NCBI GenBank assembly: GCA_013115125.1
Contig: JABANN010000143.1
Coordinates: 1 to 62,663, forward strand
Source: Perkinsus olseni
Taxonomy: Eukaryota
Length of the DNA: 62,663 bases
Direction: 5' to 3'
Shown here piece by piece: positions 16,980 to 44,851 of the stretch. Position numbers and translations under genes: made by a program. Position 1 is the first letter of the stretch. Each line of letters starts with the position of its first letter. The notes beneath the pieces were generated by a model, which saw only the letters and a list, made by a program, of their open reading frames with translations, did no database searches and had not been told where the DNA came from.

Positions 16980-18496
16980 TCAGAAGAGGCCCTTCGAATG
17001 CATGTGGAAAGCCCGGGCCCGCATCTTCCTCTCCCTCTTCGTTGTAAGGTACTCCATTCGAGTGTGCCGTACCGTCCTTCTGTTATCAACTCGTCCACAG
17101 CTTTCAAGAAGCTGATTAAAGATGTCCTCGCTGGGAATCGAACCAGGGACCTCACCTTGCGGAACTTCTCCGCTTTAGATTTGGCGTCCAGGAACGTACC
17201 CCCTTGCACTCGGAACAGACGATGTCTGGAAGTTGTGGTACGAAACCATCAAGAGACACCCGTCGCTCACCTTGGCCTCCCTTTCTCTGTCCAACCAACC
17301 CGCCAGCAGTTCATTCTCGGATAATACATCACCTCCGATACCGTACTGAAAACAGCCAATCGAGAGGGCCACCCGCTAGCTCCGAGACGGAGAGGAAAAA
17401 TCCGATCGCAAAAACCGAAAAAATGGGAATCAGAAAATTACCAACCAAAACGGCGAGTGTTCCTGATGACGAATTCCCTAGCCGGCTCCGTCTGATGGAG
17501 CAATCACAGAAACTATTACTGCGAATATGACTGTGGTGAACGAAGAATCTTTCTCTCTGCCAAAGACCACCTCGACCTACCTCATATCATATGGTATCTT
17601 ATCATGTTCAACATTATACCTTCGACGCTTCCAGAAATTTTCCGGTAGTAAATTGTACGGATAATCTGTGCCGCAAAATCGACCATCTCTCACAGTAGCG
17701 ATGAACTGTTGCAACCTGCACGCATGCACATGACGAGGTCGAAAGATTCCTCCCAGTATTACTGGTAATTTTTCGGAAAATATTTAGCAAACCCGTCCAC
17801 GACCGCCTCCCGCTCCGGCAGGGCTCTCCACGCTGACTGAATATGAGGATGCCTTGTTACCTTCGGATTTGGTGGTCGATACCTACACCGTCACGCGCCA
17901 CGAAATTCCAGCACGCATGCGCAAAGAAACCACCTCAAAAATTGGACTTCACCCGATACCAACCCTCCACCAAATCGTAGAGGAATTACCGGAGAATCCA
18001 CAGCAAGTACGAACGAGACGCCGGTCAACGATCCCATTCGACCATACACGAAAGTGAGGCCCAGATAATTATCGGGCGAGCGAGATTTGCGTAAATACAA
18101 TCCTTGCACGCATGCACAAGCTGACGATGGTAATTGTTAGTCCAGAACGGAGTGAAAAATTGGATCGAGAAATGCCCTGAGGTGATGATGATGAGAGAAA
18201 CGGTAGAAAGAGAGAGGAGAGACGCATCCAAGCTCGCTCTGCTATCTGTGTAAAACCGATCGGAATATCTTTAATTCCGTAATGAGCAAGCTCCAACCTA
18301 GCGGCGTGGATACCCAGGTAGGGACAGCCGACACAACACCCCTTAGCGAACCTCATTCTAAGACCCCCTCTTCCCATTACTACCATTTAAAGTAGCAGCC
18401 CGGTTTGACGATCAGGGTCCTTCTCTGGGGCAGCAACCCGACAGGCTGACAGGCCGCCTTTCGCCATCCGCCGATGAAGGAAGATAATAAAATCAT
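16980..18496 (-). CDS. Small spliced AP2 (ApiAP2-like) domain protein with a possible mitochondrial presequence; upstream exons only partly resolved
   Basis: Last three exons splice to TVSEVMYYPRMNCWRVGWTEKGRPR-HRLFRVQGGTFLDAKSKAEKFRK-LLESCGRVDNRRTVRHTRMEYLTTKRERKMRARAFHMHSKGLF*. Putative first exon MILLSSFIGGWRKAACQPVGLLPQRRTLIVK is basic with no acidic residues. Confidence 0.65.
17112..17155 (-). other. 44-nt intron consisting of a tRNA T-arm/B-box unit
   Basis: Minus strand GTGAGGTCCCTGGTTCGATTCCCAGCGAGGACATCTTTAATCAG; its removal restores KFRK-LLES. Confidence 0.8.
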
Positions 18497-18560
18497 CCAA
18501 ACAAAACTTGCTTCGCTCCGCTCGCCATGAACACAACACGACCAGTTGATAATTAAATCA

Positions 18561-40700: not shown

Positions 40701-43700
40701 GCGGTTTACGAGGTGACTCGCCAAGTTGAGCGCGTCGTTCGCTTTTCGCTAAACCCATGTTCAGGAGGGGTATCCATGGCTTTGGCCGTCTCGCTGTCCC
40801 GTTCGACATTCCTGGATGAGGATCAAGCCACTCAAGTCTTCTTCTATTATGGAGGTGATCGAACGGTTCGGGAATTGGGTCCGCCCATTTGGACACGAGC
40901 AGGCGTCGGGTGATCGTCTTTGAGCTACAGTCTTTGAGTCACTGTTGTCATCATTCTTCCTATTTGGGCCAGCCACCCGCTCATGTTATCATGAATACCA
41001 CAAGTGACTCATGCTACGGTCAAGTTCGACCAAACAACATTTGGTATCTGTAGGAAGACGGCTTCAGAGTTTACGGAGGCTATCTTTCCCGAGGCCGCGA
41101 GGCCTGCCCTTGCCTCCCGTGATAACGCCCTGGTAGCGGCTAGCAATGGGAGAACATTTTCCTACAGGGGTCAGCCTGCTATTGCAGGATGAAACTCCCG
41201 GCATCTCCCCCAGGGTTGTTCGACCAGTGATGTGGATGCCGAATCGAAGCGTGTGCCCGCATCAAGCGTGTATGATTCTGTGCTCGTACCGCAGGGCAAG
41301 GTGGGGGTGCCCAGTGGTGAATGAGGTTCTCGTTGGGATACTACCGATGGTTTTCGGATCGGCATTCCCCTGATATCGGAATTTCCGATTCGGAAAGTTG
41401 GTCGGATCTGGTCGGACGGATCATACTGGATGTCGGATCTCGAGAGGGTCAGTGACATATTGACCACCTTCTATACATGGAGGACCTGCGGGTATCCGTG
41501 GTCGCTGTACTTGTTGGTAGGAGCGAGAGGTACCTTGGGACAGCGTAAGCTTCCAAAGACAGTGCAGGCATTGCCGCCAAGATCGTAGCTCAAGGCTTGA
41601 ATGGGCTTGCAGTGACGTGAAATTTTTGCCTCAGCTAAAGGCCATCTTAGCTCAAACTAATCCAGGTGATGAACTCTTGTTGTGTCTCTTGTTGTATGAA
41701 AGACTTCATCCAGGGCGTGGCTGATATAGAGTCAAGAAATGAGACAGAGACGGAGGAAAGCAGCTGCGTTATTCAGCCTGAATATACTTCGCGGCACTCT
41801 AGATGGCCTGCAGTTCCTCTAATGCTTGCCAGAACTATTACATGTGGTCTCCGTGTTCCTGATAGCGCAAGACGGTTCATCATGGAGGCTGGCTTAACAA
41901 GCCAGGCTTAGCGTGTACTCAAGTTGCGTTGATTGGACCGGGTCGGATCGATCCGTGCCGCACGGGCGCAGGATATACTGATCTTTTGACCAGTTTAGTT
42001 GCTCGCTTTCAAAATCCCGTTTTCGTGAGTTGTCCCGTAATTTACTGCCGGGAAATGCTAGTATGACTTTGTATACTTAGGCCTAGCGTGGATGAGTTTG
42101 ATCATCAATGCCATGACCTGTGGGCCTCTAGTGGACTTCCTCGGTCTCTCCCGTCCACAAGTAAGTTGCACGGGGACAGGCGCCCGAGGAATCACCTGAT
42201 TTCAATTCAGTTCTCTGTAGTGATCAAAATGGAAGCTGTGAGAGCTCGGCTGCGCGACGCGATCTACGGACATGGACCAACGGGTGAGGCGGATGAACCA
42301 AATCTCATCGACCCTCGCAGATTTCGGCTGCCTCCTAGGCCCGGTGGAAGAGCTGTGTCCTAGCACGTGGAGGTATCTTCATGCTCAGCCAGAGGCTGTG
42401 TTGAACTGCTTGTTGCAGCACAGGTCGAGCATCACTGGAGGGCAACTCTATCATTACAAACCGAGTAGCGACAGTAGATCCTGACACGTCGATATGTCAC
42501 GTTCGTAGATCCCACATTCCGGAAGTCCTTAGCGGCGCTAAACTCGACAGAGGACTTAGGCTCTCATTCGTCCGTGGACGTCTCCAGCTCTGAGCTACTG
42601 AGTACACAACGAGAAACCTACCTGAATGTGCTGGGTGAGCTCTCTTCAGTTGCCACTGCAGAGGGTTGTTGGGCACTTGCAGTGGGAGGACGTTCGGTGT
42701 CACATTCATGTCGATTGAGTTTATCCACAGGACTTGCCTGACGTGAACTCGTTCCGGAAATGAGTAAATCTGTTCATGAATTCACTAGCGTAGTGCGATG
42801 GCATTGCCACAGGTATGTGTAACTCAACCGGGTTGTTGCCTTCGCCTTCGCTCGGACGCGCTTAGCTTGAAACTGTTTCCCCCTCATCTCAGCCAGTTTC
42901 TACACGCGAGCCTTGAAGGACGAGATCGTCCCTGGGCAACCGGAGATTGCTGGCTTACTGCTCAGGACGGTTGAGGACGCTAAAATGAAGGTGTGTTCCG
43001 CCAAGCATCAGCAGGCCGAGCTTCTACCGGAGAGGTCGCTCCTCTCCGGCGTGAAATGCCCGTTGTACCGCCGTGGCCGAACTGCCAGTTAGCAACTTGG
43101 CTGCGTTCACCTTTCCTTCAGGTTTTCGTCGGCCTCCGTGACTGGAAGGCTGTTCAGAATTTGCTCAGGGTTGGGCGAGATAAGCACACTCATATGAGGA
43201 ATGCCATGGTGGGTACATGAGATTTCGCGAAAATATGGTATGGATTTCTCGTGAGGGGGCAGTTTTGGTGAACTTTCTTCTATCAGATACTTCACCTCTT
43301 CATGGGATGTAGTCGGAAAACCGTGGAAGTAAGGGGGTGTCGGGGTGGCTGTGGGCCAATAGCTCGCGGGAGAGGACAACAGCGTCGTCATAAATAATTT
43401 AACTACCAAATTTGTGAATACACGCTGTAAATGGTGGTAAATCGTTGTTAGTGTAGATAACTCAACAAGAGTCGTTTAAAGTGGTTCTTGAGTTATAGCT
43501 ACAGTAATAACAGTAATACGTAAGCTAGGCTAGCAAGGGAGACAGTCACAAAGGGTGAGACACTCAATTGTGTACAACTTCTCCTCACAATCGTCCCTTG
43601 TAACGATGCCTTTTTTAGTCTTCAATTCAGCATTACTCAGTAAAACCCTTCAAATCACGAGTTATAATTAGGGCTCGATGGGATCGTGCGAAGAGGGCCA

Positions 43701-44851
43701 TCTTGAACTCTGGAAGATGGGAAGAATGCCACACCCGAAAAATTGAATGGCGGAACGTGTTGTGTTGCCTACCATTTTTGAGTATCTTTCGCTGTGCAGC
43801 TGCCATTGGTATCTCCCCTCCTCAGGCAGTGACCGAGTTACTCTGTCCGACCAGCGATAGGGAGCACGACCAGCAGCATGAAGGCAGCAAAATAGTCGAG
43901 CAGCTGAATAAGGTCTTCGCCAACTTGAAGGCAGGTCGTTTTGGCGATCCTGCCAGGCTTCTGCCGATCTCACAATCCGCAGCGAACTCGACCGAAGGTC
44001 TTACATGCGAAATGTATATACTCGCTGGCCGTTTCGCTTCGCTTCCAGTGGGACAATTTTCTATTTCCTGACTGTATCCAGCAAACTCATTTATGCGCTG
44101 ATTAGAGGTATCAATTCTCATAGAGGATTGTTTAGAACTTTCTCTGGATTGTTAGAGGATATCACATGCCTCGAGATATCAGTGTCTCTAATTTTCTCCT
44201 ACCCTGGGGAAGCTCTCTCGGATAGTGATTTTCAGCCAGTATGGACCAACGTCCGTTCGGAAGTGGAAGAGAATCTTGGGGAAGCCGAGGCCCTGCTGGG
44301 TCGGATGCCCGCGAGAATTGTTCATCTCTCGCACAGGTGAGGCGTCTCCCGGAAGCTTCCAATTTGATCAGCGTAGAGACTCGTGAGCTCGTTGGGCATG
44401 GTACACGATCCTTTCACCAACAATTGCCTTTGAATTATTCAACTACAGCTGTCGTGTTCGCGAAGCTGCATCTTGAGGGAGGTCACTTGGAGTCGCCTGT
44501 CTATCGCTAAAATGTGTATTTTATGCGGTGATGCAAGACAGCAGGTATCAGAAGGTCGGAGAGGTCATCCAGCGGCTACAAGCTGAGCTTTCCCGTATCA
44601 TCGACTCAGGCCTCCTCGACCAGACAGGTAGAGCGGTTTCGTTGTTTTGGACAACTCTTCCTCGGCGGCTTCCACAGAGGCTCAGTCGGTGCTAGAGCAT
44701 ATAGACGAGGATATTCACCGTTTGCAGAACAGCATGGACTTGCCGGGGAGAAGCCCGACCTTGCTGGTGTAGGAATACGTCTGCTTCGCTGCGCCACGAA
44801 ATTGTATGAATCATCAGGAGGAAGGATGACATCTCGCTGGAGGACGAGTAA
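37739..44851 (+). CDS. SOS1/SLC9C-like CPA1 Na+/H+ exchanger with a long cytosolic tail, many introns; true start probably further upstream
   Basis: WLTVDPHLMCFVFIPMLMFGD, FGAVVSGTEPTAAIWILRALG, TESLLGDG, SFFIAEVYFGMSGVITT, FWSVMEFVSNAVVFFLGG and AWSGGLRG-GVSMALAVSL. Confidence 0.8.

Follow-up and report, generated by a model that had tools for sequence, protein, structure and literature searches.

A long DNA word enriched in short introns of Perkinsus olseni as the predicted site of a gene-body DNA-binding factor

Introduction

General regulatory and architectural sites, of which those of yeast Reb1, Abf1 and Rap1, of CTCF and the extra-TFIIIC B-boxes are the familiar examples, are located mostly at promoters, terminators and boundaries, and the fungal SCB and MSE elements carry the consensus strings CRCGAAA and CRCAAA, respectively. 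The sequence considered here is a DNA word with the 12-letter core CGCCACGAAATT, that was met in the introns of a 62,663-nt stretch of Perkinsus olseni DNA (contig JABANN010000143.1 of assembly GCA_013115125.1, termed the window below) and that recurs throughout the genome. We regard it as probable, though by a long way not certain, that the word is a double-stranded DNA site of an abundant gene-body DNA-binding or chromatin factor, which would probably have a structural role. With general regulatory factor sites it has in common a long, information-rich sequence, a copy number of around a thousand or above, occurrence in either orientation and unrelated hosts, and lone B-box-like words resembling the extra-TFIIIC sites occur in these same introns; it differs in lying in gene bodies, chiefly in introns of ~48 nt, and with no 5′ bias. 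Core variants spelling CRCRAAA and an arm junction with CGCG/GCGCC recall the E2F, SCB and MSE sites, yet the Perkinsus site is much longer, is not found at promoters and is not hosted by cell-cycle genes.

Two further systems invite comparison. Introners, which are also repeated sequences in the introns of unrelated genes, in either orientation and with nucleosome-scale intron spacing, are defined by similarity that extends to the two ends of the intron and frequently carry target-site duplications (TSDs) or terminal inverted repeats (Gozashti et al., PMC9860276, accessible part), whereas the Perkinsus word is an internal island at varied offsets, present in old introns and in exons too. The uptake sequences of bacteria (Haemophilus USS, Neisseria DUS) likewise reach ~1,000–1,900 copies of a short word on both strands with little link to gene function, and are written into coding sequence, where they accumulate at poorly conserved residues; however, 35–65% of them lie in open reading frames (ORFs; PMC2817400, accessible part), while about two-thirds of the Perkinsus copies are intronic, few are exonic and the host is a eukaryote. 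The accessible part of PMC3101222 reports intron prevalence and mentions no motif there, and no publication title on such a motif in Perkinsus was found, papers behind subscription, among them genome papers of these species, lying outside the search; of the listed papers whose text contains one of two 10-letter strings, none concerns Perkinsus or protists, judging by title.

Abundance and Anatomy of the Word

The exact core occurs 1,059 times (554 on the + strand, 505 on the −) in the 39.9-Mb assembly that was searched (3,353 contigs, the window being contig C476), compared with a single match for the reversed control and a chance expectation for an exact 12-mer of 4.8 per genome and 0.007 per window. 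With up to one mismatch there were 1,897 matches genome-wide (control 81), so that the core, described as invariant in the first-pass annotation, is invariant in the seven window copies known at that point and not in the genome. The degenerate consensus YCRCN{0,1}GCGCCRCRAAATT gave 1,147 matches and none for the control. The site spans ~19–23 bp and consists of an arm (YCRC plus an optional pyrimidine), then G-CGCC-RCR-AAATT, then any letter other than T. The arm, present at 150 of 156 exact cores, takes forms such as GTCAC, ACCGC, TTCAC and GTCGC and may contain an additional T or C, and most combinations occur, as in free assortment; the consensus proposed earlier proved too narrow, since it missed the optional T or C as well as the ACCGC and TTCAC arms.

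In 37 exact copies the information content begins ~9 bases before the core and ends 1 base after it. In 191 independent sites it fades out over at most ~5 bases before the arm and 2 bases after the core, and long tails in common were seen in one pair only. Substitutions are distributed unevenly over the 12 core positions (0, 0, 1, 1, 10, 6, 15, 2, 2, 1, 10 and 9; chi-square 59, p 1e-8) and are mainly A5>G and G7>A. The second CpG of the core is often altered and the first never, and the sampled DNA has a CpG observed/expected ratio of 0.93, i.e., no depletion, which argues that the pattern is not plain methylation decay.

The word, which is not palindromic, forms no stable fold by DNA parameters (−0.3 to −1.1 kcal/mol or none). 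Its composite with a downstream CGCGCGCGCCC has only 2 matches genome-wide, and a paralogue search for diverged copies with 10 kb of contig C3 returned only four matches of 30–45 nt. The 19-mer had 13 single matches in metagenomes and a 17-mer 29 in viral sequences, none accompanied by a second core; these are read as chance, 41 of the 42 being without any of three other Perkinsus words.

Placement in Introns, Exons and Genes

Gene structure in this DNA, in which there are many GT-AG introns with a median near 52 nt, was predicted by a gene finder self-trained on 461 kb, with the motif masked and 15 RNA introns as seed. The first sample (678,530 bases) held 135 sites, of which 89 were intronic, 19 exonic and 27 intergenic, compared with 27%, 41% and 25% of background 12-mers; in the second (46 loci, including one 8-copy array) the figures were 60, 15 and 11 of 86. 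In seven contiguous stretches amounting to 461 kb, sites per kb numbered 0.80 in short introns (n = 30) and 0.22 in long introns (n = 22), vs. 0.083 in intergenic DNA (n = 10), 0.079 in exons of at least 600 nt (n = 4) and 0.045 in shorter exons (n = 7). Short introns are thus about ten times denser in the word than intergenic DNA. Intron enrichment, on which the first-pass annotation had staked its reading and which it had wished to see compared with exons, is present in the sampled genomic DNA, and the resemblance between copies does not continue into any larger repeat.

No bias toward the 5′ or 3′ end of genes was seen (intron-rank quintiles 16/18/23/6/17 of 80), and motif introns did not cluster significantly on their contigs, where 9 close pairs stand against an expectation of 6.3 (p 0.12). 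The host genes are miscellaneous and include Vps16, beta-COP, GST, poly(A) polymerase, RING, EF-hand and TPS (115 exons scanned, most matchless). The distance from the donor to the motif varies from 2 to more than 30 nt. Internal exons peak at 80–120 nt and drop above 150, and exon plus intron peaks at 140–170 nt, which is the nucleosome scale (691 predicted units).

Arrays and an Orthologous Intron

Purifying selection apparently acts on the word in gene bodies, as is suggested by tandem arrays and by one orthologous intron. The array at L230:2594-2873 (contig C2392) has 8 copies with a 40-nt period in a single intron; 5 of 152 motif letters differ from the consensus, all five being variants common elsewhere, vs. 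15 of 126 spacer letters (p 0.009). On C715, where motif sites are dense (13 in 7.5 kb; L229:2952-7505), the three copies of a 46-nt-period array agree in 19/19 motif letters and 19/27 spacer letters. Local duplication is also seen as a 20-nt direct repeat at L188:1500-1540 (C1493) and as four copies at ~70-nt spacing at C139:1747-1970, and in each of 21 pairs of neighbours lying no more than 128 nt from one another the orientation is the same. The array periods (20, 21, 33, 40, 46, 54, 59, 62, 63, 78, 88, 100 and 105) are too few for a test of helical phasing. Genes at the dense clusters have no informative Pfam match, hence they yield no autoregulated candidate factor.

The orthologous intron is that at 40099-40145 of the Na+/H+ exchanger gene of the window. 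P0037, an ORF of 100 amino acids, reads through it, and the off-frame first half decodes to an exon of the P. marinus protein P0082. At least 14 of 33 exon third codon positions differ between P0037 and the window, and the introns are equal in length, the window reading VSTMEIT-ARHEI-IIL and P0037 VLLHVIII-ARHVI-VL, with the word shifted by one codon and the remaining letters of the intron diverged. The P0037 peptide fits the G-T core variant, which in P. olseni also occurs with a full arm; its probability is ~1e-4 by random chance and ~0.007 by neutral retention. No other read-through intron was found among the compared proteins or, without a profile, across 1.84 billion representatives, where the one addition was P0082, which is spliced. 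A high-information site with position-specific tolerance, such as is characteristic of general regulatory factors, thus appears to be under purifying selection here in the arrays and in one orthologous intron.

Copies in the Window and Their Host Introns

The exact core is present seven times in the window, on the + strand at 17896, 19677, 39940, 40123 and 44792 and on the − strand at 35623-35634 and 38234-38245, and all seven copies fall in introns (exact-core scan compared with RNA joints and annotated exon maps), as the first-pass annotation had reported. Its description of these introns as short holds for five of them (44–57 nt), and not for the other two, of 501 and 146 nt. These two longer introns carry, close to their 3′ ends, the copies with a CGTCACG arm, at 17889..17907 (+) and 39933..39951 (+), whose 19-mers are identical as claimed; the first lies in intron 17883-18383 of an AP2-domain gene on the − strand (annotated protein P0068, exons 18496-18383 and 17881-17762) and the second in intron 39815-39960 of the exchanger gene, with an RNA joint in run X1. 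The copy at 19670..19688 (+, GTCACTG arm) is placed in a 57-nt in-frame intron of tatD on the − strand (19652-19708), seen as a 19-residue gap in P0041, P0043 and P0044 and common in position to P. marinus. At 35623..35641 (−, TGTCGCG arm) the host is a 46-nt intron (35612-35657) of a CDK gene on the + strand, joined in runs X1, X2 and X7. The remaining copies belong to the exchanger gene, which lies on the + strand: 38234..38253 (−, CGTCACT arm) in 44-nt intron 38215-38258 (P0040, P0034, P0035, P0039), left unspliced together with a neighbouring intron in one RNA contig; 40116..40134 (+, TACCGCG arm) in 47-nt intron 40099-40145, where it is kept in the P. marinus-like sequence treated above; and 44785..44803 (+, TTCGCTG arm) in 49-nt intron 44769-44817 (P0034, P0035).

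Among the listed joints in RNA contigs (15 of 26), which come from contigs whose RNA status is partly a guess, intron 35612-35657 is covered in three of four runs, and 39815-39960 and 40099-40145 in one of four each; of the runs with small word shares, X2, X7 and X9 were used. Introns 17883-18383, 19652-19708, 38215-38258 and 44769-44817 come from exon maps of annotated Perkinsus proteins, which are gene models and not cDNA. Four host introns could be compared across species, i.e., that of tatD, as noted, and the exchanger introns at 38215, 39815 and 40099, which are common to P. chesapeaki. One exchanger exon is 100% identical to P. olseni proteins and 83% to P. chesapeaki; for a TBC ORF the values are 92–94% and 70%.

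The seven copies are not the full set. An eighth, with a full arm and one mismatch (A5>G), was overlooked at 13171..13189 (−), in a predicted coding exon of SYF1, where it reads ALEISRRAV. The preceding exon matches Syf1 up to its last residues and the exon with the copy has no Syf1 match of its own, so that the copy is coding only presumptively. Scans of the window with Rfam and ARAGORN gave no match. Apart from the motif, run X1 has a loose end at 44982, ~180 nt beyond the copy at 44785, made of adapter-like sequence plus what we take to be a spliced-leader 3′ end, presumably marking a trans-splice acceptor for a methyltransferase-like ORF; the segment 36744-36875, upstream of the exchanger gene, is a multicopy repeat with many variant contigs in the same run.

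Copies Inside Coding Exons

A minority of sites are coding, and as with uptake sequences they are written in at tolerant residues, in Sen1, Vps16, an 899-aa RAP-like gene and an ORF on C1103. In a Sen1 exon of 1,869 nt, an exact site encodes NFVARD, which pairs ungapped with NLNVEF of a Sen1 of solved structure; a one-residue gap stands three codons farther upstream. A variant site lies within a Vps16_N match that pairs 41 residues with 41 profile positions (E 0.005, with E 4e-14 for another of this gene's exons). Two sites are found in the annotated 899-aa single-ORF protein with RAP-like features and three in a 573-codon ORF on C1103; exact look-up of 10 ORFs found one. Such exonic sites came about through substitution and not through insertion of 19 bases.

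One may ask whether such sites serve the host at all. Molecular drive, in which a recombination, repair or DNA-uptake process turns near-matches into the word, so that sites gather wherever they are tolerated and bring no benefit singly, would account for random host genes, for sites in coding exons of fast-evolving proteins and for long exons being about as dense as intergenic DNA, and uptake sequences accumulate in coding DNA in the same manner (PMC2817400, accessible part). Presence of a site in one allele and absence from another also fits it, as does the densest block of allele differences in the 899-aa protein, which begins inside an exonic motif copy (L064:2674-5370, −; residues 621–630 show 7 amino-acid differences in 10, vs. 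49 in 899 overall). Nevertheless, drive alone leaves the tenfold density of short introns over intergenic DNA unexplained. Nor do alleles differ more often around the seven copies of the window, where 11 of 299 codons differ at distances up to 100 nt and 93 of 1,599 at distances above 300 nt (p 0.17). It also requires a binding protein, and so departs from the reading of the word as a gene-body site in purpose and not in recognition. We know of no sequence-biased DNA uptake in alveolates, and consider drive an unlikely explanation.

The Rival Reading of a Mobile-Element or tRNA Relic

The first-pass annotation offered, as an alternative to protein binding, the relic end of a tiny mobile intron. 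In its wider form this reading takes the word as the remnant of an old introner, of the end of a miniature inverted-repeat transposable element or of a tRNA-derived insert that seeded or filled introns, or as patches copied from such a donor. The strong preference for introns and the same orientation in 21 of 21 close pairs would agree with it, and there are hints of tRNA: other intronic words in this DNA are tRNA 3′ halves, tRNA-Arg(CCG) shares 10 letters with the reverse strand of the word, and P. marinus carries tRNA-targeting Dada transposons (PMC3706591, accessible part). Yet flank identity is 25.4%, TSDs of 3–8 nt are not in excess over shuffles (135 sites), information is confined to the word, long shared tails are lacking bar the one pair, donor offsets are variable, exonic copies align ungapped, and B-boxes keep no constant distance from the word, being present within 150 nt of 7 of 86 sites. 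A relic would hardly keep a conserved island amid randomized flanks. By the marks of introners, host introns share the motif alone and no similarity up to both ends, TSDs and terminal inverted repeats (known from a subset of families) are missing, close motif pairs being direct and not inverted, and recent lineage-specific gain is contradicted by the tatD intron common to P. marinus and the three exchanger introns common to P. chesapeaki. In the supplement of the introner survey (PMC9860276), the score is 0 for each of P. olseni, P. marinus and P. chesapeaki. The mobile-intron proposal therefore failed on flanks, TSDs, exonic copies and tails, and an element relic as the force that maintains the word is largely refuted by unrelated flanks, missing TSDs, exonic copies and old introns; the relic reading as a whole seems to us quite improbable, although the word may have originated anciently from such an element and then been domesticated.

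Two specific donors were rejected. A tRNA-derived short interspersed element or tRNA 5′ fragment does not agree with the A-box/B-box spacing of tRNA, and the best tRNA likeness is 10 nt in a comparison set that is incomplete (the tRNAs of 30 out of 63 scored loci, together with 40 further stretches). A Dada insertion would sit in a small-RNA gene and be flanked by a TSD of 6–7 bp; for a Dada end or footprint, no exact core was found in 85,815 bases around 30 tRNA loci, and there was no TSD. Words like a B-box or tRNA 3′ half do occur in the window, at 10212, 12398, 12604, 17144, 19301, 20366, 34832, 35176, 35482 and 36857-36866, on either strand, often followed by a T run and in several cases within RNA-confirmed introns; the window has no whole tRNA gene.

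A Predicted Site of a Gene-Body Factor

The binding of a sequence-specific DNA-binding protein, which the first-pass annotation had put forward, is supported by the two orientations, the position-specific tolerance, the way the word is kept in arrays and in a single orthologous intron, and the intron enrichment. In the mechanism that we infer, one abundant Perkinsus protein would recognize the 19–23 bp site, and ~1,150–1,900 sites would be kept by purifying selection in gene bodies, mostly in ~48-nt introns where they are presumably free of cost, and now and then in exons whose protein tolerates the residues. New sites would come from point substitution and local tandem duplication, not from transposition. 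The task may be structural, like that of a general regulatory factor in nucleosome position, boundaries or elongation, and not that of a switch of one regulon, given that host genes are random, that sites are spread evenly along them and that exon plus intron form a unit of 140–170 nt; this is the weakest part.

Several observations weigh against such a site. The searches yielded no binding protein for it. The arrays were located via the motif itself, and three copies of a 63-nt-period array in C715 (motif 18/19 and 15/19, spacer 33/44) are not clearly better kept in the motif. Conservation between species comes from one locus and from amino acids, not DNA. The sampled DNA was chosen around known motif copies; the gene finder recovers 13 of 15 RNA introns, which are the same introns as its seed and hence no independent check, and it calls some in-frame introns exons (beta-COP, probably TPS), so that true exonic sites are fewer. 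One site of the 899-aa gene is missing from another P. olseni allele (P0230, P0232), which implies that single sites turn over. Finally, orientation within introns is skewed, with AATTTCG on the mRNA-like strand in 109 of 149 sites vs. 40, and the word often overlaps the donor (GTAATTTCG); together these suggest that RNA-level constraints play some part.

The skew, the donor overlap and the enrichment of introns over intergenic DNA are also what would be expected of a splicing element bound in pre-mRNA, e.g., an enhancer or a branch-point or donor helper. The 40 oppositely oriented intronic sites have the same consensus in a word that is not palindromic, however, and copies are intergenic and deep in long exons as well, the distance to either splice site is not fixed, no clear branch-point word is present in these introns and no stable fold is formed. 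We therefore hold an RNA-level element to be very improbable, and the earlier view that the word is no splicing signal and would act on DNA is backed by its occurrence in both orientations.

As for the binder, the resemblance to E2F sites noted in the first-pass annotation was not borne out: E2F/DP (PF02319) had 0 genome matches at E 0.1, which is not proof of absence, since intron-split genes can escape; moreover, promoter or 5′ bias was not seen, and the hosts are of miscellaneous function and not the cell-cycle or replication genes at whose promoters E2F/DP sites lie. KilA-N likewise had no genome match, again not proof of absence. The same search route gave 7 AP2 matches on two contigs, which point to two candidate binders, a duplicated gene with tandem AP2 domains (C2281:14839-18506) and a gene with three AP2 matches (C2868:35939-37266). 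Perkinsid AP2 domains group with apicomplexan ones (PMC4117751, accessible part).

Other Words and Repeats

Ten enriched intronic words were found in 165 of 1,119 predicted short introns (~15%). Besides the word described here, those occurring on two strands in the window plus 485 kb include GCGGAGCGAAG, CCTAAGATAC, GCACGCATGC, AGAGGTGTCAG, WAATCGATCA, ACTGCAGTAC, GGWGTGGTAT and GAAATGCAAG. The word and the nine others shared a short intron once, with about 5 such cases expected.

The window contains further repeats. Near-perfect palindromes with arms of 30–43 nt are located at 23787-23849, 25978-26040, 58854-58914 and 58664-58849, and in three of them the centre is a single nucleotide; two inverted 15-nt tandem arrays lie at 58088-58318 and 58969-59208; and long-range inverted repeats pair 25794-25909 with 62535-62663 and 1-72 with 58529-58600. 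Inverted arrays and repeats surround transposon-like ORFs at the right end of the window.

Concluding Remarks

Of the intronic words, the one described here is the most enriched in the sampled DNA and is set apart from the tRNA debris in the intronic lexicon. A bolder picture, which is speculative and rather doubtful, is that Perkinsus gene bodies are organized by about ten long DNA words in linker-sized introns, with exon and intron together measuring ~150 nt and one factor for each word, as a chromatin code or an uptake-like drive, and that this word pre-dates the split of P. olseni and P. marinus. If true, the word would be strong enough to be written into conserved proteins that lack an available intron. 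Cis-regulation in perkinsids and dinoflagellates is nearly uncharted, and control is thought to be mostly post-transcriptional. As a defined site of 19–23 bp with more than 1,000 copies, the word is a handle on a putative DNA-binding factor in the nearest relative of dinoflagellates to have nucleosomes, and very short introns would then carry DNA-level sites, which is a possible reason for their retention.

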